DNA of 27,854 nt, taken from NCBI GenBank assembly GCA_039714075.1, contig JBDLKA010000042.1, positions 1 through 27,854 of the forward strand, given 5' to 3'. Both the position numbers and the translations under genes were made by a program. The stretch is from Candidatus Krumholzibacteriota bacterium. Its GTDB lineage: Bacteria; Krumholzibacteriota; Krumholzibacteriia; LZORAL124-64-63. The notes beneath the pieces were generated by a model that was not told where the DNA came from, made no database searches, and saw only the letters and a list, made by a program, of their open reading frames with translations. Shown here one piece after another: positions 8,070 through 27,854 of this stretch (positions are counted from its first letter, which is position 1; each line of letters begins with the position of its first letter).

Positions 8070-8107
8070 GGGAATACTCCTTTCCATGCAGCCATTCCGT
8101 TGGCCCG

Positions 8108-8135
8108 AGTATACCGGGACAAGATAATCAGGCAA
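8108..8135 (-). promoter_or_regulatory. Putative sigma70 promoter for the xdh-like operon
   Basis: Minus strand TTGCCT-16 bp-TATACT, about 40 bp upstream of ATG 8069. Confidence 0.5.
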
Positions 8136-8180
8136 GATTTTACCGGCCTTCACCGCGATCGGCCGCGAAAGGAAATTTCA

Positions 8181-8998: not shown

Positions 8999-9037
8999 TC
9001 ACCATATTATCCGGCTCCGCATGAATTCGAGACCATG

Positions 9038-9065
9038 GCCCGGGCTCTTCAGCCCGGGCATTTTT
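9038..9065 (+). terminator. Rho-independent terminator
   Basis: GCCCGGGCT-cttc-AGCCCGGGC followed by ATTTTT. Confidence 0.85.
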
Positions 9066-9264
9066 CAAAGTGCCCCCGGGGACACTTTTCTGCTCTATTT
9101 AGTTTGTTTTCAATGGGTTAAAATATTGGGACGAGCTTCTTGGGTATTTTGACAGCATATCTATTGTCAGTCTCATAAAAAAGTAAATAAAAATGTTGTC
9201 AAACTTTCAGCTTTGACTAGGGAGGCGATTTTCACAATAACCCACAATTTAACCACCAAGTAGT

Positions 9265-9283
9265 GGCAACGATTATCATTTTC
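9265..9283. promoter_or_regulatory. Fur-family box-like site
   Basis: Reverse complement GAAAATGATAATCGTTGCC matches the Fur consensus GATAATGATAATCATTATC at 15/19 positions; 53 bp upstream of GTG 9337. Confidence 0.45.
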
Positions 9284-9336
9284 AAGTACACTGCCTCCCA
9301 GCCATCCCTCACCAAAACCCCTGACGGAGGACGCGC

Positions 9337-10650: not shown

Positions 10651-11870
10651 AAAGGACGCTGCTGATAATCGCGGTCCTGTCGGTGACCGCCACCGCGGGC
10701 CGGGCCCAGATCGCCGTGCGCGGCGGGGTGGTTCATACCATGGCGGGCGAATCCATCACCAACGGCGTGGTGGTCATCGAAGGCGGAAAAATCGCCCGGG
10801 TGGGCCCCGCCGATGAAGTTACCATTCCCGCGGACATCAAGGTTTTCGAGGCGGCCGTGGTCACCCCCGGCCTGGTGGATGTCCATACGACGGTGGGGCT
10901 GTCGGGCATCTACAACGTGCCCCACGACCAGGACCAGTTGGAGAAATCGGCGCCCCTCCAGCCCGAACTGCGCGCCCTGGACGCCTACAATCCCCTCGAG
11001 CAGCTGGTCGGGTGGGTCCGCTCGTTCGGGGTGACGACCATGCACACCGGACACGGCCCCGGCGCGCCGGTTTCCGGACAGACCATGATCGTCAAGACGC
11101 GCGGAACAAGCGTGGACGAGGCGGTGGTCCAGGAGGCGACGGCCGTGGCCGTGACCATCACCAGATCCTCCGATATATTCAACCGGAACAAACTGCTGAC
11201 CACCCGGGCCAAGACCATCGCGCTGCTGCGGCAGGATCTCATCAAGGCCGGGGAATACCGGGCCAAACTCGACGCGGCCCGCAACGACGACGATGTTGGG
11301 GCGCCCGACCGCGACCTGCACGTCGAGACCATGGTCCGGGTCCTGGAAGGGGAACTGGCCCTGATGGTCACCGCCCACCGGGTGCGGGACATCATGGGCG
11401 CCCTGCGTCTGGCCGATGAATTCGGGGTGCGCCTGTGGCTGGACGGGGCCGCCGAAGCCCACCAGGTCCTGCCGACGATCAAGGAAGCGGGCGTGCCGGT
11501 GCTGCTGCATCCGACCATGATGCGCGCCTTCGGGGAAACCGAAAACGCCAGCTTCGAAACCGCCTCGCTGCTGCGGGACGCCGGCGTTCCCTTCGCCATC
11601 CAGAGCGGGTACGAAATCTACGTTCCCAAGACCCGGGTCATTCTTTTCGAGGCGGGTGTCGCGGCCAGCCACGGGCTCGGCTTCGACGACGCGCTGGCCG
11701 CCATTACCCTGGGAGCCGCCAGGATCCTGGGTATTGACGACCGGGTGGGTTCATTGGAAGTGGGCAAGGATGGGGACTTGGCGCTCTATGACGGCGATCC
11801 CTTCGAATACGCGACCCATTGCGTCGGGACAATAATCGAAGGCGAAGTGGTGTCAGACCTGAGGCGGTGA
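10647..11870 (+). CDS. Exported amidohydrolase-superfamily protein with degenerate metal ligands
   Basis: ATGA-coupled to the previous gene; signal peptide; PGLVDVHTT, AITLGAARILG, GSLEVGKDGDL. Confidence 0.88.
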   Translation: MKRTLLIIAVLSVTATAGRAQIAVRGGVVHTMAGESITNGVVVIEGGKIARVGPADEVTIPADIKVFEAAVVTPGLVDVHTTVGLSGIYNVPHDQDQLEKSAPLQPELRALDAYNPLEQLVGWVRSFGVTTMHTGHGPGAPVSGQTMIVKTRGTSVDEAVVQEATAVAVTITRSSDIFNRNKLLTTRAKTIALLRQDLIKAGEYRAKLDAARNDDDVGAPDRDLHVETMVRVLEGELALMVTAHRVRDIMGALRLADEFGVRLWLDGAAEAHQVLPTIKEAGVPVLLHPTMMRAFGETENASFETASLLRDAGVPFAIQSGYEIYVPKTRVILFEAGVAASHGLGFDDALAAITLGAARILGIDDRVGSLEVGKDGDLALYDGDPFEYATHCVGTIIEGEVVSDLRR

Positions 11871-12935
11871 CGGCCAGGACTTGATGTGCAGGTCCCGTTG
11901 CGGGAAGGGAATTTCCAGGCCCTCGACCGCGAGGGCCTTGTAGACCCGGGTGTTGATCTCGTCACGGACACGCCCCCGGAAAACAGGGTGCTTGACCCAC
12001 ACCAGAATCTGGAAATCGAGGCTCGACTCTCCCATGGTGATGAAACGCACAACCGGGGATTGTTCGTCGCTGGTGTGGGAAACTTCCCGGACGCATTCGA
12101 GCAGGATCTCCTTCACCCGGTCCACGTCGCTGCCGTAAGCCACGCTGGTATTCACCCGCACCCGCATCCGGGGTGAGGGACCGCTGGACTCGTTGACGAT
12201 CTTGGCGTTACCGATCACAGCGTTGGGCACGGTGACCTCGACGTTGTCGCGTGTCAGCAGGCGCGTGGAGCGCATGCCGATCTCGGTGACCACCCCCCGC
12301 GACTCGCCGTCGATGATGATATACTGGCCCACCTTGTAGGGCGCGTCCACCAGGATAAAAACTCCGGAGATGAAGTTGGCCAGGGTGTCCTTGGCGGCGA
12401 ATCCGACCGCAATGCCCAGGACCCCCGCGCTGGCCAGCCAACTGGTCAGATTGATGTTCCACGCCGACATGATCATGTAGGTCATGACCCCGAACACGAT
12501 GACCTTGTATGCGAACTGGACCAGGGGCAGCGTCTGGGGCTGGATCCACTTGTACTTTTCCACGTTTTTGCTCAGGCGCTTGAAAACCATGGCACCGGTG
12601 ACGGAGAAAAACCGGACCCAGATCAGGATCACCAGGGTGGTGGTGATGCTGGTTACAACCGTGTCGATCCGTTCATTCGGAATGAAATCCAGGGTGGCGA
12701 TGTGGATACCCTGCAGGACCACCGTCCGCGTGAGGGCCAGCACCAGCAGGCTCACGGCCTTGTCGTCGATGTCCGTTGAAGATTTGCGGGTCAGGCGCTG
12801 CAGCAGCGGCAGCAGGAAAATCCGCAGGGTCAGTGCGGTTACGATCGCCAACCCGACGATGATCGCCAGGCGTGTGTACGGGTTCTGCATATGGCCATCA
12901 AGCCAGAGGTTGATCTGTGCAATGGTCTGATCCAC
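11853..12935 (-). CDS. mscS: Small-conductance mechanosensitive channel, MscS family
   Basis: ASAGVLGIAVGFAAKDTLANFISG, APYKVGQYI, GVVTEIGMRSTRL, VPNA, VAYGSD, GLEIPFPQRDLH. Confidence 0.93.
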   Translation of the reverse strand: MDQTIAQINLWLDGHMQNPYTRLAIIVGLAIVTALTLRIFLLPLLQRLTRKSSTDIDDKAVSLLVLALTRTVVLQGIHIATLDFIPNERIDTVVTSITTTLVILIWVRFFSVTGAMVFKRLSKNVEKYKWIQPQTLPLVQFAYKVIVFGVMTYMIMSAWNINLTSWLASAGVLGIAVGFAAKDTLANFISGVFILVDAPYKVGQYIIIDGESRGVVTEIGMRSTRLLTRDNVEVTVPNAVIGNAKIVNESSGPSPRMRVRVNTSVAYGSDVDRVKEILLECVREVSHTSDEQSPVVRFITMGESSLDFQILVWVKHPVFRGRVRDEINTRVYKALAVEGLEIPFPQRDLHIKSWPSPPQV

Positions 12936-14646: not shown

Positions 14647-15603
14647 ATGATCGAAGTTCGTGGTATCACCAAGAGCTTCGGGACCATGCGCGCGCTCGAC
14701 GACGTTTCCTTCAGTCTGGGACGGGGAGAAATCCTCGGTTTCCTGGGCCCGAACGGCGCCGGCAAGAGCACGACCATGAAGATCATCACCACCTTCCTGG
14801 CCGCCGATCAAGGTCAGGTCACCGTGGATGGGATCGAAGTCCTGGAGCGACCGCTCGATGTGCGACGGCGCATCGGCTACCTGCCCGAGAATGTTCCCCT
14901 GTATCCCGACATGAACATCCAGGAATACCTGACCTTCGTCGGCCAGGCCCGCGGCCTGTCCGGCGGACGCCTGCGCGAACGGCTCGACTGGTGTGTCGAG
15001 GCCTGCGGCCTGGTCACCGAATACAGGAAGAACATCGGGGACCTCTCCAAGGGTTACAAACAGCGGACCGGGCTGGCCCAGGCGCTCATCCACGATCCGG
15101 AAATCCTGATCCTGGACGAACCCACCAGCGGCCTGGATCCCCTGCAGATCCTGGGCATCCGCGAACTGATCAAGAACCTGGCCGGAGAAAAGACGATCAT
15201 CTTCTCGACCCACATTCTCCAGGAAGTCAGCCCGGTGACCGACCGCGTGGTGATCATCAACGAGGGCCGGATCATCGCCGACGGCAACGTGGGCGACCTG
15301 TCCCGCGACGCCATGGGGACCAACCGGGTCTTCGTGGGCATCCGCGAGGACGGCGCCACGGTCGAATCCGCCCTGAGGGAACTGGTCGAAGTGTCCGAAG
15401 TACGTCCCCTGCCCGCCGACGGAGGCTGCCGCTTCGAGGTGCGGGGGGCCTTCGACTCCGACCTGGTCGGCGCCGTGGACCGGTTGGCCCGCGGCCGCGG
15501 CTGGGATCTGACCCAGCTCCACGAGGCCACCTTCAGCCTCGAAGACACCTTCATCTCACTGACCAAACGCGCCGCCGGCAGCGGTCTGAAGGGGGTGGCG
15601 TAG
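14647..15603 (+). CDS. ABC-2 type ATP-binding protein, GldA-like
   Basis: Walker A GPNGAGKST, signature LSKGYKQR, Walker B LILDEPTSGLDP, STHILQEV. Confidence 0.95.
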   Translation: MIEVRGITKSFGTMRALDDVSFSLGRGEILGFLGPNGAGKSTTMKIITTFLAADQGQVTVDGIEVLERPLDVRRRIGYLPENVPLYPDMNIQEYLTFVGQARGLSGGRLRERLDWCVEACGLVTEYRKNIGDLSKGYKQRTGLAQALIHDPEILILDEPTSGLDPLQILGIRELIKNLAGEKTIIFSTHILQEVSPVTDRVVIINEGRIIADGNVGDLSRDAMGTNRVFVGIREDGATVESALRELVEVSEVRPLPADGGCRFEVRGAFDSDLVGAVDRLARGRGWDLTQLHEATFSLEDTFISLTKRAAGSGLKGVA

Positions 15604-16329
15604 ATGCAGAACACGCTGACCATCTTCAGGCGTGAATTCGCCTCCTATTTCAACAGCCCCATCGCCTACATCTTCATCATCGCTTTTCTGGTGTTGAATT
15701 CAGGGCTGTTCATGACCGGGTTCTTCCTTAACGGCGCCGCGGATCTGCGGGCGTTTTTCGGGAACCTCCCGTTCTTTCTGATTTTCTTCATCCCCGCGGT
15801 GAGCATGAGGCTGTGGGCCGAGGACAAACGCACCGGCACCTTCGAGCTGCTGATGACCCTGCCCATGCGCGCCCGCGAAGTGATGATGGGCAAGTACCTG
15901 GCCGCCCTGGCCTTCTACCTGGTCTCGCTGGCGGGCACCCTGCCGTTGCCGATCATGGTCTCGGCCCTGGGTAATCCCGACATGGGCGCCATCTGGAGCG
16001 GCTACATCGGCGCCGCGCTGCTGGGCGGCCTGTACCTGGCCGTCGGCACGTTCACCAGCGGGCTGATGCGCGACCAGATCTCCGCCGTGATCCTGGGGAT
16101 CATGGCCTGCTTTTTGATCTTCATCGTCGGCGTCCCCGGCGTGGCGGCCACCATCGACGGCTGGCTTCCCGGCTTCGGTTCCTTCCTCCAGCACTACCTC
16201 GGTCTTTCGGACCATTTCGAGATGATGCTGCGGGGCGTGATCACCCTGGGCGACCTGGCCTACTTCCTGGGCCTGACGGCCGTGTTCCTCTCCCTTAACA
16301 CGCTGTGGCTGAAAGGGAGGAAGTACTAA
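15604..16329 (+). CDS. ABC-2 type permease, GldF-like
   Basis: FRREFASYFNSPIAY, MRLWAEDKRTGTFELLMTLP, GKYLA; about six TM segments. Confidence 0.92.
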   Translation: MQNTLTIFRREFASYFNSPIAYIFIIAFLVLNSGLFMTGFFLNGAADLRAFFGNLPFFLIFFIPAVSMRLWAEDKRTGTFELLMTLPMRAREVMMGKYLAALAFYLVSLAGTLPLPIMVSALGNPDMGAIWSGYIGAALLGGLYLAVGTFTSGLMRDQISAVILGIMACFLIFIVGVPGVAATIDGWLPGFGSFLQHYLGLSDHFEMMLRGVITLGDLAYFLGLTAVFLSLNTLWLKGRKY

Positions 16330-18092
16330 TGAACAGCAAACGCAGAAACTTCCGCATCACGTTCGCGGTGGCGGCCCTGCTGCTGACCGCGATCGCCTTT
16401 TTCCTGGTCTCGGTGCTGGACAACATGCCCGGAGCCCGGGTCGACATGACCAGCGACCGCCTGTTCACCATGTCGCCGGCGGCGGCCAAGATCCTCAAGG
16501 GACTGGAAGTGCCGGTGCAGGTGAAGCTGTACATCACCCCTGCGGACAAGATGCCGACACAGCTGCGCACCCTCGAACGCGACATCAATGAACAGATGCG
16601 CAACTTCGAGCAGGTGGCCGACGGCATGCTCGAGTTCCAGGTCTTCAATCCCCAGGACGACGAACAGATGCAGCAGACCCTCGGCGCCAAGGGCATCCGG
16701 CCGTTCCAGGTGCAGTCCATCGAAAAGGACGAGATGGGCATCAAGCTGATCTGGAGCGCGCTGACCATTGCCTACAAGGACAAGCCCGAAGAGGTGCTGC
16801 CCCAGGTGCTGCCGCAGAACCTGGCCGCGCTGGAGCAGGACATCATCGGTCCGGTCTACCGCCTGACCCGGGAAAAGGCGCCCAAGATCGCCATTTTCGG
16901 GCCCAAGAAACAGGTCGACCAGCAACTGGCCATGATGTACCTGCAGCAGGGCATGCAGCCGCCCGAACCCACCGAGCAGTACGCTCAGCTGGCCCAGTTG
17001 ATGAGCCAGGGACACTACGAGGCGGTGCCCATCGAACTGACCGAGGCTTCCGGCGTGCCCGCGGACGCCGACGCCCTGATCGTGATGGCCATCAGCCCGC
17101 TGAACGAACGGCAGGTCTACGAGATCAACCGCACCCTGCGCCGTGGTGTGCCGGTGGTCATGGGTCTGCAGGCCCACGAGTACGGGTACAGCCCCGCCCA
17201 GAGCGGCGGCTGGACCATCAGCGGACAGCCCGTGGAAACGGGACTGGAACCCATGCTGGCGGAATTCGGCCTGACGGTATCGGAGGACCATTTCATGGAC
17301 ACCTCCTCGGAGACCATCAATCTGCCGCGTGAAGTTAATCTGGGCGGCCTGCGTATGCAGACCCAGGAACCGGTCCGCCTGCCGATCCAGATCCGGGTGA
17401 CCGAGGCCCAGATGGATCAGGACTCGCCCCTGGTCAACCGCATCGGAGCGGTTTTCTACCTGTGGGGGACGCCCGTCCTCAGTGACCTGGACAAGACCGC
17501 GGCGCACGGCCTGCAGGTCACCGACCTGATCCGCAGCAGCGACCACGTCTGGTCCGAAACCTGGACCGAAGGTCCCGTGACCTCGGCCATGCTCAATCCC
17601 GAAGGCCGGAGCCTGGACGGGGCCCAGCCTTTGGCGGTCATGGTCCAGGGCACTTTCCCGGACACCTTCGAAGGCAGGGACGTTCCCGCCTGGCCCGCGG
17701 CGGGCAACCCCGAAGCAGTGGATGATCCCCTGGCCCAGGGTCCGGCCGCCCCCGCGCCAGTGGATCCCCAGCCGGGCCGGCTGTTCCTCATCGGCAGCGC
17801 CAAGATGTTCGACGACAACATCCTGGCCGCCGGACAGAACGCCCTGCTGCTGCTCAACGCGGTGGATTATCTGGCCGGGTCCCAGGACCTGCTGAACATC
17901 CGCAGCAAGACCCTGACCCAGCGCGTCATCAAACCCGTGGAAGCCAGGGAGAAGCTGATCTGGCGCATCAGCGGGGTGCTGCTGGTGCCTGTCCTGCTGG
18001 CGGTCTTCGGCATCCTGCGCGCGGGGATGCGGCGCAAGGAAGCCGCCCGCTACCGCGAAACCATCAGACACACAACCGGCGCAGCCAGTTAA
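16329..18092 (+). CDS. GldG-like ABC auxiliary component
   Basis: TAATG overlap; N-terminal TM, RVDMTSDRLFTMS, NAVDYL..DLLNIRSK, C-terminal TM. Confidence 0.88.
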   Translation: MNSKRRNFRITFAVAALLLTAIAFFLVSVLDNMPGARVDMTSDRLFTMSPAAAKILKGLEVPVQVKLYITPADKMPTQLRTLERDINEQMRNFEQVADGMLEFQVFNPQDDEQMQQTLGAKGIRPFQVQSIEKDEMGIKLIWSALTIAYKDKPEEVLPQVLPQNLAALEQDIIGPVYRLTREKAPKIAIFGPKKQVDQQLAMMYLQQGMQPPEPTEQYAQLAQLMSQGHYEAVPIELTEASGVPADADALIVMAISPLNERQVYEINRTLRRGVPVVMGLQAHEYGYSPAQSGGWTISGQPVETGLEPMLAEFGLTVSEDHFMDTSSETINLPREVNLGGLRMQTQEPVRLPIQIRVTEAQMDQDSPLVNRIGAVFYLWGTPVLSDLDKTAAHGLQVTDLIRSSDHVWSETWTEGPVTSAMLNPEGRSLDGAQPLAVMVQGTFPDTFEGRDVPAWPAAGNPEAVDDPLAQGPAAPAPVDPQPGRLFLIGSAKMFDDNILAAGQNALLLLNAVDYLAGSQDLLNIRSKTLTQRVIKPVEAREKLIWRISGVLLVPVLLAVFGILRAGMRRKEAARYRETIRHTTGAAS

Positions 18093-18104
18093 AGGAGGAT
18101 ATCC

Positions 18105-19163
18105 ATGCTCAAGAACAGAAACATCCTGATCCTGGCCGCGGTCCTCGTGGTGCTGCTCGGAATCAGTCTGGTCCAGAAGTCCAGCTACAGGAAGAGCACC
18201 AGCCGGACCTCCACCGACACCGTCGTCGCCGGCGTGTTCACCGCCGACCAGTTGGACCGCATCACGCTGGGCCATGGTCAGGACAAGGAAGCCGTGGTGC
18301 TGGTGTCCACCCCCACCGGTTGGGTCACGGCCAGCGCCTGGGACGCCCCGGCGAACATGGCGCGCATCGACGCGCTGCTGAGCAGCGTGAGCGACCTGAG
18401 CGGGGAGTTCCGTTCCGACAGCCAAGCGGTGCTGGACGACTACGGCCTTTCCGACGACACCGCCGTGACGGTCCGCGGCTACGGCAAGGACGGCGAACTC
18501 GCCTTCGGGTTGGATATCGGGAACAAGCCCGAACGGGTCCCCGGCAACTTCGTCCGCAGCCCCGGCGCCACCGCTGTCTACCTGACCCAGACCAACCTGC
18601 TGGCCCAGCTGGGCCTGTACGAAGGTCCCGCCAGGCCGGGCAGCAAGCACTTCCTGGATCTGGAAGCGGTGAAGGAAGAACGTCTGGCGGTCGACCGGAT
18701 CATCCTGGACGACGGTGGCCTGAGGCTGGAAATGGCCAAGGAGTTCTCTCCGGCCCACCCCGTTCCAGGCTCGGGACCGGAGGCCACGGCCGCCGACGAT
18801 TCCGTGGAACTGGACCGCACGACGTGGGAATGGAAGTTGACCGCCCCCCAGGCCAAGGCCCTGGCCAAGACCAAGGCCGACGGGGTGCTGGGTTCCCTGG
18901 TCAACATCCGCGCCGTTGATGTGGACGACCCTGCGGCCGACCCCGCCGCCTTCGGTCTGGCCGAACCCGCCCGCACCGCCACGGTGGTCCGGGAAGACGG
19001 TTCGGAACTGACCCTTGAATTCGGCAACCAGAAGGAAGCCGAAGGTGACGGCCAGGCCGGGATCTGGATGAGGGTCCGCGGCAAACCCGCGGTCTGGGTC
19101 GTGACCGATTACACGGTCAAAAACATTTTCAAGACGGTGGAGGACCTTTTGCCCGAGGAATAG
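18105..19163 (+). CDS. DUF4340-domain membrane-anchored protein
   Basis: AAGGAGG RBS; N-terminal TM; two internal repeats (LDDYGL / PAAFGL); usual fourth gene after GldG-like genes. Confidence 0.8.
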   Translation: MLKNRNILILAAVLVVLLGISLVQKSSYRKSTSRTSTDTVVAGVFTADQLDRITLGHGQDKEAVVLVSTPTGWVTASAWDAPANMARIDALLSSVSDLSGEFRSDSQAVLDDYGLSDDTAVTVRGYGKDGELAFGLDIGNKPERVPGNFVRSPGATAVYLTQTNLLAQLGLYEGPARPGSKHFLDLEAVKEERLAVDRIILDDGGLRLEMAKEFSPAHPVPGSGPEATAADDSVELDRTTWEWKLTAPQAKALAKTKADGVLGSLVNIRAVDVDDPAADPAAFGLAEPARTATVVREDGSELTLEFGNQKEAEGDGQAGIWMRVRGKPAVWVVTDYTVKNIFKTVEDLLPEE

Positions 19164-19345: not shown

Positions 19346-20683
19346 GTGAGTGGACTGCTTCTGAAAAACGGAACCGTGCTCGACTACTTCCCGGTGGCCC
19401 TGGACGCCGAAGCCGCGCCCCGGGTCGAAACCATGGACCTGAGGGTTTCCGCCGACCGGATCACCGAACGCGGAACCGGGCTGCAGGCGACCGGACAGGA
19501 AGAGGTCATCGACCTGCAGGGCCGGGTGGTCATGCCCGGGAACGTCAACGCCCACGGCCATCTTTACGCCTCCCTGGCCGCCGGCATGCCCCAGCCCAAG
19601 GCCAGCCTGGAAACCTTCACCGACATCCTGACGGAAATCTGGTGGCCGCTGGACCGGGCCCTCGACGCGGACGCCATCTACCTGAGCGCCCTGGCGGGCA
19701 GCTGGGACGCCGTCCGGTGCGGCACCACCCTCATTTTCGACCACCACGCCAGCCTGGCCTGTGTGGGAGGATCGCTGGACCGGGTGGAAAAAGGCATCCG
19801 GGAGGTCGGCCTGCGGGGCTGCCTCTGTTACGAGGTGACCGACCGCGGCGGCAAGGGCCAGCGCGACATCACCCTCGAGGAAAATGAACGCTACCTGCAG
19901 AAGATCATGGATGCCCCCCAGTCGGGCGTGCCGTGGTTCCGGGGCATGGTCGGCGCCCACGCCAGCTTTACCCTGGAGGAGCGAACCCTGGCCTTGCTGG
20001 AGAGCATCTGCAGCCGCATGGGCGCGGGTCTGCACATCCACCTCGGTGAAGGCACCACCGACCGTGAGGTAAGCCACGACCGCGGCTGGAAGGATCCGTT
20101 GGACCGGCTGGAGGATTTCGGCCTGGTCCGGCCCGGCAGCATATTCGCCCACGGGGTGGACCTGTCCCCCATCGACATGCAGACCCTGGAGGAAAAGGGG
20201 GTCTGGCTGATCCATTGCGGTCGCTCCAACATGAACAACGGCGTGGGCCGGGCCCCGGTGGACCGTTTTCCCACCAACTGCGGGATCGGCTCCGACGGGC
20301 TGGACGACAACATGTGGGGCGAACTGCGCACCACCTATTTCCGGGGCAACGAAGGCGGGCGCGGCCCCCTGAGCCACGCCGACGCCGCCCGTTTCTGGCT
20401 GGGCAATTTCCGCCTCGCCCGCGAAATCTTCGGTGAGCCGTTCGGCAGCCTGGACAAAGGCGCTCCGGCCGACTTCATCCTGCTGGACAATTTCCAGAAG
20501 ACTCCCCTTACCACGGGCACGTGGCTTGGACACCTGCTGTTCGATTTCCACCCCTGGGACATCCACGCCGTCTACGCCGGCGGCCGCCGCGTCTATCTGA
20601 ACGGCGACAGTCCGCCCGTGGATGCGGGGCTGCTGCAGGAAACCGCGGCCCGCATCTGGAAAGCGATGGGACTGGGCGCATGA
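19346..20683 (+). CDS. ssnA: SsnA-like amidohydrolase (chlorohydrolase/deaminase family)
   Basis: NAHGHLYASLA.GM, FTDILTEIWWPLDRALD, GTTLIFDHHAS, CYEVTDRGG, GAHASFTL, HIHLGE, RSNMNNGVG, GSDG; adjacent to ygeY. Confidence 0.8.
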   Translation: MSGLLLKNGTVLDYFPVALDAEAAPRVETMDLRVSADRITERGTGLQATGQEEVIDLQGRVVMPGNVNAHGHLYASLAAGMPQPKASLETFTDILTEIWWPLDRALDADAIYLSALAGSWDAVRCGTTLIFDHHASLACVGGSLDRVEKGIREVGLRGCLCYEVTDRGGKGQRDITLEENERYLQKIMDAPQSGVPWFRGMVGAHASFTLEERTLALLESICSRMGAGLHIHLGEGTTDREVSHDRGWKDPLDRLEDFGLVRPGSIFAHGVDLSPIDMQTLEEKGVWLIHCGRSNMNNGVGRAPVDRFPTNCGIGSDGLDDNMWGELRTTYFRGNEGGRGPLSHADAARFWLGNFRLAREIFGEPFGSLDKGAPADFILLDNFQKTPLTTGTWLGHLLFDFHPWDIHAVYAGGRRVYLNGDSPPVDAGLLQETAARIWKAMGLGA

Positions 20684-21912
20684 CGGGAATGAACAACAGC
20701 GACCTGATCCGGACCCGCGTCCGTGACCGGGAAAAGGAAATCATCTCCTTCCTGAGGGACATCGTCGCGATACCCAGCCTGTCCGGACAGGAGGAAGCCG
20801 TGGTCCGGCGCATCGCCGCCGAGATGGAGAAAGTCGGCTTCGACGAAGTGGTCATCGATCCTTTGGGCAACGTCCTGGGCCGGGTGGGCGACGGCCCCCG
20901 CGTGATCGCTTTCGACGCCCACATCGACACCGTCGACGTCACCGACCACGCCCAGTGGGACTGCGACCCCTACCTTGGCAAGATCGAGGACGGCAAGGTT
21001 TTCGGACGGGGCGCGGTGGACCAGAAGGCGGGCATGGCCGGCATGGTCCATGCCGGAGCCGTCATGAAGGAACTGGGGCTGCTGGAGGGCGTGCAGGTCT
21101 GGATGGTCGGCTCGGTCATGGAAGAGGATTGCGACGGATTGTGCTGGCACCACATCCTGGCCGAAAAAACCCTCGCCCCCGAACTGGTCGTATCCACCGA
21201 GCCGACGGGGCTGCGGATCAACCGCGGCCAAAGGGGCCGGATGGAGATACGGGTCCGGGTCAAGGGCCGCTCCTGCCACGGCAGCATGCCGCACCTGGGC
21301 GACAACGCGATCTACAGGATCGCGCCCGCCGTCCAGGCCATCGAAAAGCTCAACGGGAACCTGAAAGACGATCCTTTCCTGGGCAAGGGAACCTGCACGG
21401 TGACCTGGATCGGCAGCCAGGGACCGAGCCTCTGCGCCGTGCCCGACGAGGCGGAGTTCCATATCGACCGCCGCTTGACCGTCGGGGAAACACGCCAGTC
21501 CGCCCTCGCCGAAGTGGAAGCCGCACTGGCAGCTGCGGGAGTCGAGGCCGAAGTTTTCACCCTCGTCTACGAGGAGGAAGCCTGGACCGGACTGGTCTAC
21601 CCCATGGATAAATATTATCCTACCTGGGTGCTGGACGAGGGGCATCCCGCCCTGGCCGCCGCCGGCCGGGCCTTCACGCGGGTGACCGGACATGAACCGG
21701 AGGTTTCCCGGTGGACCTTCAGCACCAATGGGGTGGCCATCATGGGCCTGCACGGCGTCCCTTGTTTCGGTTTCGGACCGGGCCGGGAAGACGTCGCCCA
21801 TTCGGCCAACGAACACGTGCCCACCGAGGATGTCCTGACCGCCTGCGCCTTTTACGCGGCCTTTCCCGGGGAAATGGTCGCTGATTCGCTTCCTTCAATC
21901 GAGGACGCCTAG
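20680..21912 (+). CDS. ygeY: YgeY-family M20 metallohydrolase
   Basis: ATGA overlap; FDAHIDTV, GRGAVDQK, VMEEDCDGLCW, EPT, RGQRGRMEI, DRRLT.GE, WTFSTNGV, GFGPG.E..AH. Confidence 0.9.
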   Translation: MTGMNNSDLIRTRVRDREKEIISFLRDIVAIPSLSGQEEAVVRRIAAEMEKVGFDEVVIDPLGNVLGRVGDGPRVIAFDAHIDTVDVTDHAQWDCDPYLGKIEDGKVFGRGAVDQKAGMAGMVHAGAVMKELGLLEGVQVWMVGSVMEEDCDGLCWHHILAEKTLAPELVVSTEPTGLRINRGQRGRMEIRVRVKGRSCHGSMPHLGDNAIYRIAPAVQAIEKLNGNLKDDPFLGKGTCTVTWIGSQGPSLCAVPDEAEFHIDRRLTVGETRQSALAEVEAALAAAGVEAEVFTLVYEEEAWTGLVYPMDKYYPTWVLDEGHPALAAAGRAFTRVTGHEPEVSRWTFSTNGVAIMGLHGVPCFGFGPGREDVAHSANEHVPTEDVLTACAFYAAFPGEMVADSLPSIEDA

Positions 21913-22015: not shown

Positions 22016-22095
22016 ATCAGAATCGCCCAAGGTTCTCCGGGACCCTTCCCCGCGGTCCACGAACCTTGTCAAAACCCTCTCGGAACGGGAGCTGT

Positions 22096-22725
22096 ATGAT
22101 GAACAAGTTAATGATTCTTGTGTCCGTGTTCTGCCTGATGGCCGGTGTCGCTTCCGCCCAGACAGATGATCTTCTGATTACCGAGTATCTGGAAGGGTCG
22201 GGCAACAACAAGGCCCTCGAGATCTTCAACGGCACCGAGGACTTCATCGATCTGGGCGCCTACACCATCGAGCGCTATTCCAACGGCAGCACCACGTCGA
22301 CCAGTATCCCCCTGCCCACCGTGGACCTCCAGCCCGGTGACACCTGGGTCGTCGTCCACAACCTGGCCGAAGCGTCCCTGCTGGCCCTGGCCGACCAGAC
22401 CGACGCCAACCTCAATTTCAACGGTGACGACGCCCTGGTCCTGATGTACGCCGGCACCCAGCCCGTGGACAGTTTCGGCCGCGTCGGCGAGGATCCCGGC
22501 GACTACTGGGCCTGTTCCGGCGGCAACACCCAGAACCACACCCTGCGCCGGTTGAGCAGCATCTGCCACGGCGACACGGTCGTCGATGACGTCTTCGACG
22601 CCTGTCTTGAATTCTCATTTTTCCCCAGCGACACGTTTTCCGGCATCGGCACCCACATCGCCGACTGCGGCGCCGTGGGCGACACCGACCCCAGCTGGGG
22701 ATCCCTTAAGGCGAGTTTCAGGTAA
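22096..22725 (+). CDS. Secreted stand-alone lamin-tail-domain (LTD) protein with C-terminal SWGSLKASFR tag
   Basis: Signal peptide, LLITEYLEGSGNNKALEIFNG, NFNGDDALVL, VDSFGRVGEDPG, NHTLRR, resembling the LTD of ExeM/NucH-type nucleases; no catalytic domain. Confidence 0.85.
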   Translation: MMNKLMILVSVFCLMAGVASAQTDDLLITEYLEGSGNNKALEIFNGTEDFIDLGAYTIERYSNGSTTSTSIPLPTVDLQPGDTWVVVHNLAEASLLALADQTDANLNFNGDDALVLMYAGTQPVDSFGRVGEDPGDYWACSGGNTQNHTLRRLSSICHGDTVVDDVFDACLEFSFFPSDTFSGIGTHIADCGAVGDTDPSWGSLKASFR

Positions 22726-22869: not shown

Positions 22870-23847
22870 ATGGCCAAGGATCTTCGCGGCAGGCACTTCA
22901 TCACCACCCAGGAATGGACCGACGATGAAATCGAGCTTGTCCTGGCGACCAGCACGGAACTGAAGGAAAAATTCGCCACCGGCGAACCGCACCGGCTGCT
23001 GCCGGACAAGACCCTGTTCATGATGTTCTACGAACAGAGCACCCGGACCCGGAACTCGTTCGAAGCCGGCATGACCCAGCTGGGTGGCCACGCCCACGAC
23101 CTGACCCCCGACAAACTGCAGGTCAGCCACGGCGAGACGGCCGAAGACACCGCCCGCGTCTTGAGTCGGTTCGGGCACGGCATCAGCATCCGCAACTGCG
23201 ACTGGGGCGTGGGCAACCGGTTCATCCGCACGGTGGCGGAAATGAGCACGGTCCCGGTCATCAACATGCAGTGCGACCTGTACCATCCCTGCCAGGCGCT
23301 GGCGGACCTGATGACCATCCGTGAAAAATTTCCCGACGGCATCCGCGGCCGCAAGATGGTCGTCAGTTGGACCTACGCGCCCAGTTACGTTCGACCTATT
23401 TCGGTTCCTCAGTCAGAGATTTTGCTGATGACCCGGTTCGGGCTGGATGTGACCCTGGCCCACCCGCCCGAGTTCAAGCTCCTGCCTGAGATGGTGGCCC
23501 AGGCCAAGGCCAACGCCGCGGCGTCGGGATCGAAATTCGAGATGGTCGACGACATGGACGCCGCCTTCGAGGGCGCCCACGTGGTCTATCCCAAGAGTTG
23601 GGGATGTCTGGTTCACGAACCCGATCGCGAAGCCGCCGTGCAGCACATCGAAAAATATCCCGGCTGGGTGTGCAACGAAGAGAGGATGGCGCTCACGCAG
23701 TCAGACTCCATCTACATGCACCCGCTGCCGGCCAGCCGCGGCGCCGAGGTCACCGACGCGGTGATCGACGGGCCGCACTCGGTGGTCTGGGACGAGGCCG
23801 AAAACCGGCTGCACACCGCCAAGGCCCTGATGGGCCTGACCATGTAG
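22870..23847 (+). CDS. YgeW-like (knotted-type) carbamoyltransferase
   Basis: STRT, HPCQ, HPLP, EAENRLH. SWTYAPSYVRPISVPQS and YPKSW resemble YgeW/AOTCase-type loops rather than the anabolic OTCase DxxxSMG motif. Confidence 0.82.
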   Translation: MAKDLRGRHFITTQEWTDDEIELVLATSTELKEKFATGEPHRLLPDKTLFMMFYEQSTRTRNSFEAGMTQLGGHAHDLTPDKLQVSHGETAEDTARVLSRFGHGISIRNCDWGVGNRFIRTVAEMSTVPVINMQCDLYHPCQALADLMTIREKFPDGIRGRKMVVSWTYAPSYVRPISVPQSEILLMTRFGLDVTLAHPPEFKLLPEMVAQAKANAAASGSKFEMVDDMDAAFEGAHVVYPKSWGCLVHEPDREAAVQHIEKYPGWVCNEERMALTQSDSIYMHPLPASRGAEVTDAVIDGPHSVVWDEAENRLHTAKALMGLTM

Positions 23848-23855
23848 GAGGATCG

Positions 23856-25160
23856 ATGAGCGGCCCGCTGGACAGTTTACCCGCCGTCGCCTGCAATCCC
23901 CACTGGATTGGATACCGGTGCGTGGTCTGCGACCGGGAATACGAAGCCGGATACGACGGCTTCGTGTGCGCAGACTGCGGCGTGGACGGGATTCTTGACG
24001 TGGTATACGACTATTCCGCCATCAGGAATGCCGGGCCGGTCACGGATCCCGGCCTGGGCGGGCTGTGGGGTTTCGCACCGCTGCTTCCGGTCCGACCCCA
24101 GGCAGATCATCATGCCTGGAACCTGGGTCGAACTCCGGCCCACAGGGCTGACCGTCTGGCTGCTCATCTGGGCCTTCATTCGCTGGTGCTCAAGGACGAC
24201 ACCTGCTTGCCTTCGGCCAGCCTCAAGGACCGGGCCGCGGCCGTGGCGATAGCCCGCGCACGGCAGTTGGGCATCGACCATCTGGCTTGCGCATCGACCG
24301 GCAACGCCGCGACCAGCCTGGCGGTCCTGGCCGCCAGGGCAGGAATGACCTCCACCATTTTCGTCCCCGCCTCGGCTCCACGTGCAAAGCTGGCCCAGTT
24401 GGTCCTGCACGGCGCCACGGTCATTCCGGTGGACGGTTCCTATGATCAGGCCTTCGATCTGTCGCTGAAGGAAATTACCAAATACGGCTGGTACAGCCGC
24501 AACTGCGCCCACAATCCCCTACTGGTCGAAGGGAAAAAAACCGCGGCGCTGGAACTGGCATGGTCACTGACCGGTGGGTTCACCGGGAACGACCGGGATC
24601 TACCCGATGCCGTAATGGTCCCGGTGGGTGACGGTTGCATCATATCCTCGGTGTGCAAAGCCTTCAGGGAATTGCACGAGGTCGGCATGATAGGCAAGAT
24701 CCCCCGGGTTATCGGGGTCCAGGCGGCCGGGGCCTCGCCTTTGGCCCGGGCCTGGGCTGCCGCCGGAAAATCGCCGGCTGAACTTTCCGGGCCCGAAATC
24801 CTGACCGCCGTCCGCCCGGTGGTTGCGCAGACCATCGCCGATTCCATCCAGGTCGGCACCCCTCGCAACCGGGTCAAGGCCTGGAAAAACATTACCGCCT
24901 GCGGCGGGGCCTTCCTGGCGGTCGAAGATGAATCCATCGTGGAAGCCATCAGTATGTTGGCGCGTTTGGCGGGTATCTTTGCCGAACCCTCGGGTGCGGC
25001 CGGACTGGCAGGGATTATCACGGCGCTGGATCAGGGTCTGGTCAACAACAAGGAAAATATCGCCGTGCTGGTAACCGGCCACGGCCTGAAGGACCCGGGT
25101 GCCGGTTTGACCGGAATGACCATGCCTGACCCCGTTCCACCCCTCCCGGCGGGGGATTGA
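23856..25160 (+). CDS. Threonine-synthase-like fold-type II PLP enzyme with N-terminal zinc ribbon
   Basis: AGGAGG RBS; CVVC..CADC; SASLKDR (PLP lysine), ACASTGNA, VEGKKT, PVGDG, FAEPSGAA, VTGHGLKD. Confidence 0.85.
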   Translation: MSGPLDSLPAVACNPHWIGYRCVVCDREYEAGYDGFVCADCGVDGILDVVYDYSAIRNAGPVTDPGLGGLWGFAPLLPVRPQADHHAWNLGRTPAHRADRLAAHLGLHSLVLKDDTCLPSASLKDRAAAVAIARARQLGIDHLACASTGNAATSLAVLAARAGMTSTIFVPASAPRAKLAQLVLHGATVIPVDGSYDQAFDLSLKEITKYGWYSRNCAHNPLLVEGKKTAALELAWSLTGGFTGNDRDLPDAVMVPVGDGCIISSVCKAFRELHEVGMIGKIPRVIGVQAAGASPLARAWAAAGKSPAELSGPEILTAVRPVVAQTIADSIQVGTPRNRVKAWKNITACGGAFLAVEDESIVEAISMLARLAGIFAEPSGAAGLAGIITALDQGLVNNKENIAVLVTGHGLKDPGAGLTGMTMPDPVPPLPAGD

Positions 25161-25402
25161 ATCACCGCCCCTGGCCCGGGGTGGGTCCCTCCTCCAACAC
25201 CCTCCAATTAAAAGACTTCGAAATCCCTGGGTGCCGGAAAATAGAGGCATTTCCTGAACCGGTTTTCCCGCGATAATTGGCAGAATTTAAAAAAGACAAT
25301 TAAGGTATGGTTTGACCACCAAACGTGTATGACGCGGTGGGGTTGGGTGAGGCGCTGTGGACCGTCGGCATAGACGTGAATCACAAAATGAAAGGACTCA
25401 CC

Positions 25403-27496
25403 ATGGTACCCCTGATTTCCGTGACCAGGTCCCGTTGTCCCTATTCGATTGCAATTGCCCTGGCCATATTCCTGCTTCTTTTACCCGCCTTCGCCGACGC
25501 GACCATCGATCCGGAACGGATCGAGGACGCCCAGACCGGCTGGTACTACCTTTCCAACGTGACCGAAGCCCAGATCACGAATCTCGTCAACACCGAGGGT
25601 GCACGCCTGATCGACATCGAAATATTCAGCACCTCGCCCCTGCGGTTCACCGCGGCCTTCGTCAGAAACTCCGGAGTCTACGCCTCGGGCTGGTGGTGGT
25701 ACTATGGCCAGACAATCGCCGACATCAACCTCCATCTGGCCGAGAACAACGCCCGCCTGATCGACATCGAACGCTACACCTTCGATGGTGTCGAACGCTT
25801 CGCAGCGGTCATGGTGCCCAACACGGGAGCCCAGGCCAAGGCCTGGTGGTGGTATGTCGGAATAACCACCGCGGACATCACAGCCTTCATCAACACCAAC
25901 GGCGGCCGTCTCGTGGACATCGAATCGTACGATGTCGGGGGCGTCCAGCGCTACGCCGTGATCATGTTGAAGAACACGGGCGAAGATGCCGCCGGCTGGG
26001 CCTGGTTCTTCAACACGGATCTCCCCACCCTGCAGAACTACATGACCGACAATAACATGAGATTACTCGAGTTCGAGGTCCGCGACCCGGCGGCCCCCCG
26101 CTTCGACGCCGTACTCATCTCCAACACGTACCAACCCCCCAAGACCTGGTGGTGGTACTACAACGTCCCGTTCAGTGAACTGATCGAACTGGCGAACCAG
26201 GCGGGGTCGCGCATCGTCGACATCGACCACTACCAGATCGACGGCCAGGACCGGTACAACATCGTGATGCTGAACAATTCGTCGGACCTGACGGTGGAGA
26301 TGGCCCAGATCCTCGAGTGGGGAAGTGACGGCGACACCGGAGTGTACCTGCGGGAAATCAGCGGCCCGACCCTGGCTTCCCTGCAACCGGACTTCCAGTT
26401 CAAGGCCGCCAGCACGATGAAGGCGGTGTATCACCTGCACACGATGCGCGATGTGATGGCCGGCAACATCAACCTCGCAGCTCCGATCAACTATTCGATC
26501 AACTACAGTGGGAGTTGCCCCATCGGCGGCGCCCCGACCACGACCCAGTCGCTGCAGGAGGTGTTGCGGCGCATGATGGTCAATTCGGACAACGCGGCGA
26601 CCAAAGCCATCTCGGATATGTACGGATTCCCGGCCATCACCAACACGGCCCAGAATATCGCCGGGATGAGCAGTACCAGCGCCAACCACACCCTCGGTTG
26701 CGGGGCGGATGCCATCGCCAATCCAAACACCCTGACCCTGCGGGATGCCGGTGAGTTGTACGATCGCATCGAAACCCTGCAGGTCCTGAATCAGCCCATG
26801 CGTGAAACCTACTACAGCCTGATGCAGAACCAGGACACCCCTGGCCCATGGTGGTTCACGACCGACCTGGAAGCCACCATAGGCGATGTCGCCGTCAACC
26901 TGGGCTTCCCCAATGCCGCAGATAGTTTCTGGGCAGCCACCCGGACGGCCTGGAAGCCGGGCGGGTACACCCTCATTTTTGACGGAACCAACCACGAATA
27001 TATTTCGGTGGCCGGAATCGTCAGCCTGCCCACATGCCCGACGGGTAGGGGAATCATCTACCGTGATTTCGTTTTCGGCGTCTTCGTCCACGACGCCAGC
27101 AACAACGCGGACGCCTTCGATCGCGTGCGCACGACGGCCAGGGAACTGTTTCGCGGCATCATCGCCGAAACGATGCGGACCTGCCCCTCCTCGGTGGAAG
27201 ACGGTCTGCCCCTGGTTGCCGACATGATGATGCAGCAGATCTATCCCAACCCGTTCAACCCGAGCACCAGGCTTGTTTTCAGCCTGGAGCGGCCCCAGCG
27301 GGTGACCCTTGCCGTATACGACACGGCCGGCCGTCGTGTGGCCGTACTCGCCGACGGACAATTTCAGCCGGGCAGTCACGAGGAGATGTGGAACGGTCGT
27401 GACGAAACAGGGCGCCTGGTACCGGCGGGCGTCTATTTCGCCCGTTTGAAGGCGGGTGAAAGGGTCGAATCCATGAAGATGGCCCTGATAAAGTGA
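25403..27496 (+). CDS. Secreted protein: five ~51-aa repeats (BTRD1/polyglycine-hydrolase-like), class A beta-lactamase-fold serine hydrolase, FlgD-Ig/T9SS-CTD-like tail
   Basis: AAAGGA RBS, signal peptide, repeats W(W)WY...RL(I/V)DIE.Y...RF/Y, ASTMK (SxxK), SDN, KPG, YPNPFNPST...YDTAGRRV...WNGRD..G...AGVYF. Confidence 0.82.
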   Translation: MVPLISVTRSRCPYSIAIALAIFLLLLPAFADATIDPERIEDAQTGWYYLSNVTEAQITNLVNTEGARLIDIEIFSTSPLRFTAAFVRNSGVYASGWWWYYGQTIADINLHLAENNARLIDIERYTFDGVERFAAVMVPNTGAQAKAWWWYVGITTADITAFINTNGGRLVDIESYDVGGVQRYAVIMLKNTGEDAAGWAWFFNTDLPTLQNYMTDNNMRLLEFEVRDPAAPRFDAVLISNTYQPPKTWWWYYNVPFSELIELANQAGSRIVDIDHYQIDGQDRYNIVMLNNSSDLTVEMAQILEWGSDGDTGVYLREISGPTLASLQPDFQFKAASTMKAVYHLHTMRDVMAGNINLAAPINYSINYSGSCPIGGAPTTTQSLQEVLRRMMVNSDNAATKAISDMYGFPAITNTAQNIAGMSSTSANHTLGCGADAIANPNTLTLRDAGELYDRIETLQVLNQPMRETYYSLMQNQDTPGPWWFTTDLEATIGDVAVNLGFPNAADSFWAATRTAWKPGGYTLIFDGTNHEYISVAGIVSLPTCPTGRGIIYRDFVFGVFVHDASNNADAFDRVRTTARELFRGIIAETMRTCPSSVEDGLPLVADMMMQQIYPNPFNPSTRLVFSLERPQRVTLAVYDTAGRRVAVLADGQFQPGSHEEMWNGRDETGRLVPAGVYFARLKAGERVESMKMALIK
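25535..26281 (+). repeat. Five tandem protein-level repeats of about 51 aa
   Basis: Repeats begin TGWYY, SGWWWYY, KAWWWYV, AGWAWFF, KTWWWYY; each contains an R(L/I)xD/ExE/D strand. Confidence 0.85.
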
Positions 27497-27598: not shown

Positions 27599-27854
27599 TC
27601 AATTTCCGGAACCCGCTGCGACCGTTGCCACAGCCCCGTTCCGGTGATTCTGCTCCTGCAGTGATGCGATGAGCACGGGGATCAAGGCCATGTATTCCAC
27701 GCTCAGGCTCTTCTGCGCGTCATCCACCTCGCTCACCACTTCCGGCACGATCTGCTGCAGATCCTGCGCTATCAGGCCCAACTGCCTCCCTTTTTCCGGA
27801 TGCTCCTTCCACTGATAGCTGACCGGCCTCATCTTCATGAGTTCCTCCAGACCG
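27599..27854 (-). CDS. C-terminal Peptidase S74 (intramolecular chaperone) domain of a tail-fibre-like protein; 5' part lies beyond the window edge
   Basis: GLEELMKMRPVSYQWK...LGLIAQDLQQIVPEVV...LSVEYMALIPVLIASLQEQ; frame open to the edge. Confidence 0.85.
   Translation of the reverse strand, partial: GLEELMKMRPVSYQWKEHPEKGRQLGLIAQDLQQIVPEVVSEVDDAQKSLSVEYMALIPVLIASLQEQNHRNGAVATVAAGSGN

Follow-up and report, generated by a model that had tools for sequence, protein, structure and literature searches.

Here we describe a gene at positions 23856–25160 (+) of a 27,854-nucleotide (nt) stretch of DNA from a Candidatus Krumholzibacteriota bacterium (assembly GCA_039714075.1, contig JBDLKA010000042.1, positions 1–27,854; this whole stretch is referred to as the window). 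It encodes a pyridoxal 5'-phosphate (PLP) enzyme of fold type II with the threonine synthase (ThrC) fold, which, judged from its sequence, is not a bona fide ThrC. Its family can be assigned to the reductive purine/urate (2,8-dioxopurine) pathway, an assignment that is well supported by recurrent, differently arranged gene clusters in Bacteria and Archaea. We propose that the family represents a neofunctionalised ThrC fold recruited to reductive uric acid/purine clusters, and a paralogous, non-orthologous replacement of YgeX (DpaL). On the basis of fold, motifs and context, we give an even chance to the idea that the protein is the terminal PLP lyase of the pathway, which would convert 2,3-diaminopropionate to pyruvate and ammonia. 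A diaminopropionate lyase function is plausible, although the prediction is complicated by a second PLP enzyme in some related loci. After the PVGDG loop we use the working name "GDG-type ThrC-like lyase", in which the function is a predicted one.

The reductive uric acid pathway was worked out only in 2025, and YgeX carries out its last step, from diaminopropionate to pyruvate (10.1101/2025.04.24.650524; PMC12507026; PMC12990295). The route leads from urate via 2,8-dioxopurine and a reduced purine to ring opening by SsnA/HyuA and to 2,3-diureidopropionate, from which YgeW/UacY and YgeY remove the two ureido groups; the resulting 2,3-diaminopropionate yields pyruvate and ammonia. In the text consulted from these sources the pathway is described in bacteria only.

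Fold and conserved motifs

The frame at 23856–25160 (+) translates without an internal stop into a protein of 434 amino acids (aa). The stop codon TAG (23845–23847) of the preceding carbamoyltransferase gene overlaps the AGGAGG Shine-Dalgarno sequence directly 5' of the ATG at 23856, and the start position is the same in the 40 homologues compared, hence we consider this ATG a sound start. A pseudogene or an annotation artefact is ruled out by the intact frame, by the existence of at least 120 homologues with 59% identity or more to the window protein, and by the invariant motifs.

The protein matches Pfam PALP with 231.6 bits, and its best solved relatives according to HMMER are ThrCs (E-values from 1.3e-52 to 9e-43). 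The AlphaFold2 model (predicted local distance difference test, pLDDT, 91.9; predicted template modelling score, pTM, 0.91) also has ThrCs as its best Foldseek matches, with target TM of 0.82–0.88 and 29–34% identity. The motifs expected of a ThrC fold with a PLP lysine, namely SxKDR, STGN, QAxGA and TGxGLKD (here TGHGLKD), are all kept. SLKDR (24219–24233, +) aligns to SFKDR of solved ThrCs and contains the PLP-binding Lys124; the STGN loop with Thr148 (24294–24305, +; hhalign and MAFFT alignments) is what we take to be the substrate-carboxylate loop of fold-type II enzymes. Conservation of individual residues was counted over the window and 80 related loci from GTDB genomes (81 sequences), among which Lys124 and Thr148 are each kept in 81. 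The N-terminal region carries a four-Cys zinc ribbon (C22, C25, C38 and C41; 23919–23978, +), with C25, C38 and C41 invariant and C22 conserved in at least 90% of 40 homologues, and is predicted to bind zinc.

Remodelled active-site loops

In ThrC, the Ser and Arg of NSxNPxR and the Asn of PVGN bind the phosphate of O-phosphohomoserine. We compared the window protein with four solved bacterial ThrCs (M. tuberculosis 2d1f, Aquifex 2zsj, B. subtilis 6cgq and T. thermophilus 1uim; HMMER alignments); for the B. subtilis and T. thermophilus enzymes, 6nmx and 1v7c (the latter with a substrate analogue) are solved as well. All four read NSVNPxR[I/L]EGQKT, PVGNAGN and ATAI[R/K]IG, in agreement with the motifs NSVNPxRxEGQKT and PVGNAGN that the initial annotation of the gene had given for ThrC, whereas the window protein reads NCAHNPLLVEGKKT, PVGDGCI and ADSIQVG at the equivalent loops. 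The two segments singled out in that annotation, RNCAHNPLLVEGKKT (residues 215–229, nt 24498–24542) and PVGDG (residues 256–260, nt 24621–24635), are reproduced exactly by the translation. Relative to ThrC, the remodelled loop YSRNCAHNPLLVEGKKT (24492–24542, +) has Leu223 in place of Arg, a new Arg215 and a one-residue insertion; the Gly-rich loop PVGDGC (24621–24638, +) has Asp259 at the position of the ThrC Asn, followed by Cys261; and the loop ADSIQVGTPRN (24837–24869, +), which corresponds to ATAIRIGNPAS in ThrC, brings in Asp329 and Arg337.

The Ser, Arg and Asn of the ThrC distal pocket are not kept, their counterparts in the MAFFT alignment being Cys217, Leu223 and Asp259. The same three replacements had been claimed initially, and for Leu223 and Asp259 the claim holds throughout the family (81/81). 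The ungapped HMMER alignment instead shifts the first loop (Asn to Cys, Ser to Ala, Arg to Leu), because the one-residue insertion can be placed differently, so the exact residue equivalence in this loop depends on the alignment. Moreover, Cys217 is specific to the close clade (46/46), the distant relatives having Ser (22), Cys (8), Ala (3) or Thr (2). The universal presence of Leu223 and Asp259 argues that the loop changes are not due to chance; Lys227 and Cys261 are likewise found in 81/81, Arg215 in 80/81, and Asp329 and Arg337 in 79/79 each, where the alignment column is filled. In 40 homologues at 59–82% identity, YSRNCAHNPLLVEGKKT, VPVGDGCI and ADSIxVGxPRNR are nearly invariant. The family signature thus consists of a lost ThrC Arg, an Asp instead of Asn within the Gly-rich loop, and the newly gained Arg215, Lys227, Asp329 and Arg337.

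Relationship to threonine synthases

Homologues of the window protein are named "threonine synthase" by the JGI and NCBI pipelines, and haloarchaeal copies "thrC", as the initial annotation had anticipated; its view that the protein is no true ThrC is also borne out. All six NCBIfam ThrC models score below their cutoffs: NF006050 (244.9 bits, cutoff 303), NF004170 (186.1, cutoff 421), TIGR00260 (160.6, cutoff 167.1), NF004996 (133.4, cutoff 266), NF006205 (125.2, cutoff 358) and NF005035 (114.4, cutoff 301). It is these scores, together with the remodelled and conserved loops, that lead us to set the protein apart from ThrC. Cysteate synthase (TIGR03844) was considered and rejected, with 86.2 bits against a cutoff of 324.9.

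A search of 1.84 billion cluster representatives returned 942 proteins at an E-value of 1e-30 or better, and most of the best 150 of these carry GDG. A FastTree phylogeny built from 177 sequences sets the GDG-bearing clade (155 rows, Shimodaira-Hasegawa-like support 99) apart from the true ThrCs P0223 and P0255, whose motifs are LNSxNPxRIEGQKT and VGNxGN. The window's own clade is monophyletic with support 100, and the order among the GDG subclades is poorly resolved.

Gene neighbourhood in the window

Genes in the window were called from codon-position GC content together with Pfam and NCBIfam family scans. The ThrC-like gene follows, in this order, genes for an SsnA-like protein, YgeY, a lamin-tail-domain protein and an OTC-like carbamoyltransferase. 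The SsnA-like amidohydrolase (19346–20683, +) reaches 335.2 bits with NF005540, which is below the cutoff of 444 and yet its best family by a wide margin. The YgeY-family M20 hydrolase (20521–21912, +) scores 520.8 bits with NF009555 (cutoff 321), aligned from residue 61. Its longest open reading frame (ORF) overlaps that of SsnA by 163 nt (20521–20683); given where the hidden Markov model (HMM) alignment begins, and given that homologues start right after SsnA, its real start is probably near 20700. The carbamoyltransferase (22870–23847, +; Pfam OTCace_N and OTCace) obtains 273.8 bits with the OTC model (cutoff 306) and 215 bits with the YgeW model (cutoff 453); it lies directly upstream of the ThrC-like gene, is translationally coupled to it, and takes YgeW's place in the cluster. 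The ThrC-like gene had initially been described as sitting where YgeX is normally found. This is correct in that it comes directly after a carbamoyltransferase in an SsnA–YgeY cluster, and needs amendment in that the carbamoyltransferase is OTC-like and not YgeW. SsnA-like protein, YgeY and carbamoyltransferase are thus all found beside the PLP enzyme, which is the only PALP-fold ORF in the window; neither hom nor thrB was found there by the Pfam and NCBIfam scans. Genes for XdhA/C/B-like molybdenum, iron-sulfur and FAD subunits (4424–8153, –; 4424–6787, 6712–7191 and 7188–8153; Pfam and NCBIfam, XdhA 693 bits against a cutoff of 780) are located 11 kb away, and their products may act in the same pathway.

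An OTC/AOTC-like carbamoyltransferase, not a knotted YgeW, accompanies YgeY both in the window (22870–23847, +) and in a distant locus (L073:13985–14965).

Related loci across Bacteria

The 80 related loci come from one scan of GTDB species genomes, and their ORFs were compared with the window proteins and with the E. coli K-12 proteins from XdhA to UacT. They fall into a close group of 45 loci at 59% identity or more and a distant group of 35 loci at 42–49% identity. Records of the close group are mostly metagenome-assembled genomes labelled Krumholzibacteriota/Krumholzibacteriia; others are labelled "Fibrobacteraceae", Latescibacterota or Gemmatimonas sp., or bear no taxon. Here a carbamoyltransferase is present in 42 of the 45 loci, YgeY in 39 and SsnA in 37; the three loci without a carbamoyltransferase are L006 and L021, with the gene at the contig edge, and L037, with another neighbourhood.

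The distant group spans about ten phyla (Bacteroidota, Ignavibacteriota, Chlorobiota, Chloroflexota, Acidobacteriota, Planctomycetota, Bacillota, Synergistota, Gemmatimonadota and Actinomycetota), and at least one pathway gene is found in 31 of its 35 loci: XdhA/D in 22, SsnA in 21, YgfK in 13, carbamoyltransferase and YgeY in 8 each, HyuA in 4 and YqeA in 2. SsnA is often encoded within 100 bp of the ThrC-like gene on the same strand. For L060 and L063, Pfam and NCBIfam confirmed a hydantoinase, two Xdh sets, YgfK-like and YgeW-like proteins and YgeY; L053 and L079 are short contigs. In L059, L065 and L073 the ThrC-like gene overlaps or abuts an M20 hydrolase gene, which fits an action on the hydrolase product.

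Two of the distant loci show arrangements of their own. L080 of Gemmatimonadota encodes two carbamoyltransferases (6061–7101 and 7114–8130) and a carbamate kinase, without YgeY, which suggests that both ureido groups are removed by phosphorolysis there. In L056 of Chloroflexota (8360–12499) the neighbours of the ThrC-like gene encode Xdh subunits, DUF6282, a family III CoA-transferase and a member of the arylmalonate-decarboxylase family, but neither SsnA nor YgeY, and the locus may represent a different N-heterocycle pathway.

Haloarchaeal megaplasmids

A tblastn search of PLSDB matched 146 plasmid records, of which the top 19 are haloarchaeal (38–42% identity); 14 of these are annotated "thrC: threonine synthase" and 5 are unannotated at the match. 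The protein from Haloarcula marismortui pNG700 has the GDG signature (YNRNAAINPFQVEGKRT, MGDGC and ADSIAVGRPRN). Seven haloarchaeal records were inspected, and a complete analogous cluster was found in four of them: H. marismortui pNG700, H. hispanica, Haloterrigena turkmenica and Natrinema caseinilyticum. These share an SsnA-like protein (285.7 bits, best family), a hydantoinase/allantoinase-like enzyme, "thrC", an F420-type luciferase-like monooxygenase (LLM) oxidoreductase, a D-aminoacylase-family amidohydrolase (UacY-like), a carbamoylase-type Zn hydrolase (TIGR01879, 426 bits) and two Mo-hydroxylases (Xdh), to which H. marismortui adds a xanthine/urate-type permease and H. turkmenica adds yqeB, selD and yqeC. 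Each step of the E. coli pathway has an analogue in these clusters, with the ThrC-like enzyme where YgeX would be expected. No other PALP ORF was detected by sequence search within 41 kb in L082 and L083, none is annotated within 29 kb in the other two full clusters, and none was detected in L082–L084 as a whole besides the ThrC-like gene. In Haloprofundus, "thrC" overlaps an M20 peptidase gene.

L082 (H. marismortui pNG700, 249738–290910), L083, L085 and L086 each appear to contain a complete selenium-dependent reductive purine-degradation cluster.

Absence of YgeX from the clusters

The clusters examined agree with the initial expectation that the gene does not routinely co-occur with a genuine ygeX. 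Sequence searches of the loci themselves found no ORF with YgeX as its best match in the window, the 80 loci or three haloarchaeal loci; the only YgeX matches in the 80 loci, 25 ORFs at 21–27% identity, are the ThrC-like proteins themselves. Searches by phmmer with five PALP queries likewise revealed no YgeX in the window, the 80 loci and L082–L084, and none is annotated in four further haloarchaeal loci. With YgeX as the tblastn query against plasmids, no haloarchaeon appeared among the best 60 of the 249 records listed, nor among the ten commonest organism names.

The window protein itself is far from YgeX. It shares 22% identity with it, and meets the cutoff of none of the YgeX/DpaL models (TIGR01747, TIGR03528 and NF006058), scoring 48.4 bits with NF006058 against a cutoff of 276, whereas E. 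coli YgeX scores 637–697 bits on the YgeX models. Alignment of the family with E. coli YgeX by hhalign covers residues 91–213 only; loop equivalences beyond this N-terminal half are therefore taken from a seven-sequence MAFFT alignment.

Proposed role and alternative explanations

If the protein is indeed the terminal lyase, the lower pathway in the window might operate as follows. SsnA and a hydantoinase would open the rings, and the carbamoyltransferase and YgeY would strip the two ureido groups; 2,3-diaminopropionate would then bind the PLP held by Lys124 as an external aldimine, its beta-amino group would be eliminated and aminoacrylate released, to hydrolyse to pyruvate and ammonia. Asp259, at the position of the ThrC Asn, would interact with the departing ammonium group rather than with a phosphate. 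We regard a diaminopropionate lyase as the most economical reading, because a single PLP enzyme follows the SsnA-like protein, YgeY and the carbamoyltransferase, and because the same is seen in the full haloarchaeal clusters, where different enzymes would remove the ureido groups.

Several observations weigh against this reading. Asp120 of YgeX (TTDGN loop) serves as the base for the D-isomer, as the second catalytic base, and in both hhalign and MAFFT it aligns to Thr148 of ASTGN in the window protein. The linear alignment shows no convergence with YgeX, which has Val at the position of Asp259. Foldseek gave ThrCs as best matches, as described above, and no diaminopropionate ammonia-lyase among the matches listed (to rank 49). 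The conserved new residues Arg215, Lys227 and Arg337 could still hold an anionic or ureido group, for which reason the loss of anion binding is not certain. As for context, Pfam and NCBIfam scans recognised no YgfK, UacX, HyuA or YqeA/carbamate kinase in the window; the neighbourhoods in L037, L057 and L069 are unrelated to the pathway; no such cluster surrounds the gene in Salinigranum; and in Haladaptatus "thrC" shares its module with two D-aminoacylases, a Zn hydrolase and a Thr/Ser-dehydratase-like gene. The loci were picked by likeness to the window protein, hence clusters that use neither YgeX nor the GDG family lie outside the sample. The pathway intermediates have been proposed to be R/D-configured (10.1101/2025.04.24.650524; PMC12990295). 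Finally, 11 of the 35 distant loci encode a second PLP enzyme, which is CysK-type in L080 and a cysteine-synthase-like protein of about 480 aa in the other ten (L063:18901–20352, L066:12595–13581, L073:11250–12722, L059:11232–12635, L061:10197–11645, L064:11342–12745, L065:12567–14027, L067:7028–8398, L079:4323–5168 and L051:10606–11601). Its gene lies directly downstream of the ThrC-like gene in L059, L064, L067, L073 and L079, after YgeW in L066, and between YgeW and YgeY, i.e. in the ygeX slot, in L063, which makes it a rival YgeX candidate there. In those lineages the cysteine-synthase-like enzyme may be an equal candidate for the YgeX role, or both enzymes may act together.

The protein of about 480 aa contains PALP only; its best NCBIfam match is cysK (90–98 bits, cutoff 351), its best PDB match is a cysteine synthase (E-value 5.5e-17), and its automatic name in the ESM Atlas is "putative cysteine synthase". 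Possibly it acts in the purine pathway as a further enzyme not known so far.

The second PLP enzyme also bears on the main alternative, according to which the ThrC-like protein acts in the same pathway on another reaction: elimination of urea from 2-amino-3-ureidopropionate (albizziin), racemisation of diaminopropionate, beta-replacement to serine or cysteine, or a two-enzyme system in which it works in series or together with the cysteine-synthase-like enzyme, the latter being the real YgeX substitute where present. Besides the abutting genes and the occupied ygeW–ygeY slot of L063, this alternative is favoured by Bacteroidota-type clusters, which place the ThrC-like gene beside SsnA and Xdh and not beside YgeW and YgeY, by the missing Asp120 equivalent, by the possibility that conserved Arg215 and Asp259 recognise a neutral ureido group, and by the order of ureido cleavage and the stereochemistry, which are still open according to PMC12990295. 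On the other hand, the ThrC-like protein is the sole PALP-fold ORF in the window, the 45 close loci and the three sequence-searched haloarchaeal loci, and neither searches nor annotation revealed another PLP gene on the four plasmids with a full purine cluster. In the close loci and the full haloarchaeal clusters two ureido-removing enzymes should yield diaminopropionate, for which a lyase is still needed, and a urea lyase acting on albizziin would leave one of the two superfluous. Altogether we consider another reaction within the pathway possible, if rather unlikely. The more specific notion that the GDG family catalyses a reaction new to purine catabolism, either urea elimination from (D-)albizziin or a stereospecific conversion of diaminopropionate that needs the 480-aa partner, appears doubtful to us; if it were true, the reductive urate pathway would have a lower branch of its own kind that is widespread among haloarchaea and bacteria from the environment.

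The protein could also serve an unrelated metabolism, for instance as a general serine/threonine or D-amino-acid dehydratase whose neighbourhood merely reflects lineage synteny. Synteny alone is indeed weak evidence within the close clade, since its members share the entire block along with a GldA/F/G-type ABC transporter that is unrelated, and in Haladaptatus, where Xdh and SsnA are missing, the D-aminoacylases are accompanied by peptidases and a peptide transporter. However, SsnA, Xdh, YgfK and YgeY are found with the gene again and again, in clusters of differing arrangement from about ten bacterial phyla and from haloarchaea. Inherited gene order cannot explain this recurrence, hence this possibility is improbable. 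Still more so, to the point of being hardly credible, is a genuine threonine synthase located beside purine-degradation genes by chance. The closest solved relatives and the best HMMs are ThrCs, distant members annotated as thrC pass the TIGR00260 cutoff of 167.1 (225 bits in L063, 231 in Haloarcula), and a few occur in housekeeping-like contexts, e.g. L057 beside cysteinyl-tRNA synthetase (CysRS). Yet every ThrC model stays below cutoff for the window protein, three loops that are invariant in the four solved ThrCs are replaced in 81/81 family members, the GDG clade stands apart in the tree, and the cluster association recurs in many phyla, with no hom/thrB in the window.

Implications

Within the literature searched we found no publication that describes the GDG family or its link to the pathway. 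A term search for "threonine synthase" and "ThrC" found neither in 10.1101/2025.04.24.650524 or PMC12507026, and "threonine synthase" is absent from PMC2276186 and PMC4016543; the available part of the commentary PMC12990295 does not mention such an enzyme. In PMC12507026, "YgeX" was scored in gene neighbourhoods by Pfam PF00291, which cannot tell YgeX from ThrC-like or CysK-like proteins.

If the diaminopropionate lyase reading is true, the pathway reaches past gut Bacillota and Proteobacteria to Krumholzibacteriota and other lineages of the FCB group, Bacteroidota, Ignavibacteriota, Acidobacteriota, Planctomycetota and haloarchaea. Surveys that require a YgeX homologue of at least 50% identity, as in 10.1101/2025.04.24.650524, would undercount it, while surveys that accept any PF00291 protein, as in PMC12507026, would hide the swap. 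Many "thrC" annotations bearing a Gene Ontology term for threonine biosynthesis would then probably be wrong, and the family would provide a clean case of a phosphate-eliminating synthase turned into a lyase via three remodelled loops. The idea is directly testable, as cultured haloarchaea carry the gene.

Other features of the window

Between YgeY and the carbamoyltransferase lies a gene for a lamin-tail-domain protein of 219 aa with an ExeM-like N-terminal region (22066–22725, +; Pfam LTD), which occupies the same position in many close loci and is odd for a catabolic operon. Directly upstream of SsnA, a GldA/GldF/GldG-like ABC system and a DUF4340 protein (14647–19163, +) are syntenic throughout the close clade, down to 59% identity. 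The window further encodes two amidohydrolases (9337–11870), mscS, an NFACT-domain gene, arsM and arsR. Downstream of the ThrC-like gene, the frame 25325–27496 (+) specifies a beta-lactamase-fold protein of 723 aa, in which a class-A beta-lactamase-fold domain is combined with a polyglycine-hydrolase-like repeat and, at the C-terminus, a sorting domain of the type IX secretion system (T9SS). Instead of conferring resistance, this protein may be a protease of the beta-lactamase fold that is secreted. At the end of the window, a partial ORF (27599–27853, –) contains Peptidase_S74 (endosialidase chaperone), as at the C-termini of tailspike-like or fibre-like proteins. Two ORFs, 8270–8998 (+; 242 aa), which is divergent from the Xdh-like operon, and 2301–3806 (–; 501 aa), have a coding-type GC content at third codon positions but match nothing in Pfam or NCBIfam, even with the threshold relaxed to E = 1.

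Comparison with known systems

The window protein resembles ThrC in its N-terminal zinc-ribbon region, which is covered by the long models NF006050 and NF004170, and differs from it family-wide in three loops: NSxNPxRxEGQKT is changed to RN..xNPxLxEGKKT, PVGNAGN to PVGDGC, and ATAIRIGNP to ADSIxVGxPRN. Its gene is found in a context of purine degradation and not of hom/thrB. Cysteate synthase, a neofunctionalised ThrC relative with a similar zinc-ribbon-bearing architecture, offers a precedent for the ThrC fold in another reaction. It takes a phosphorylated substrate, whereas the ThrC Arg and Asn are gone in the window protein. With YgeX/DpaL the protein has in common fold type II, the place in the cluster after a carbamoyltransferase and beside YgeY and SsnA, and, as the context suggests, possibly the same reaction.

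In the urate pathway, UacX is known to replace YgfK, UacY to replace YgeW, and Chloroflexota to use an F420 "luciferase-family" enzyme; among the swaps described in the text consulted from PMC12507026 there is none at the YgeX step. As in the proposed case of the ThrC-like lyase, some lineages use an unrelated or distant enzyme for one step of the cluster, and in the haloarchaeal clusters the ThrC-like gene occurs together with genes for a UacY-like D-aminoacylase and an F420-type LLM oxidoreductase.

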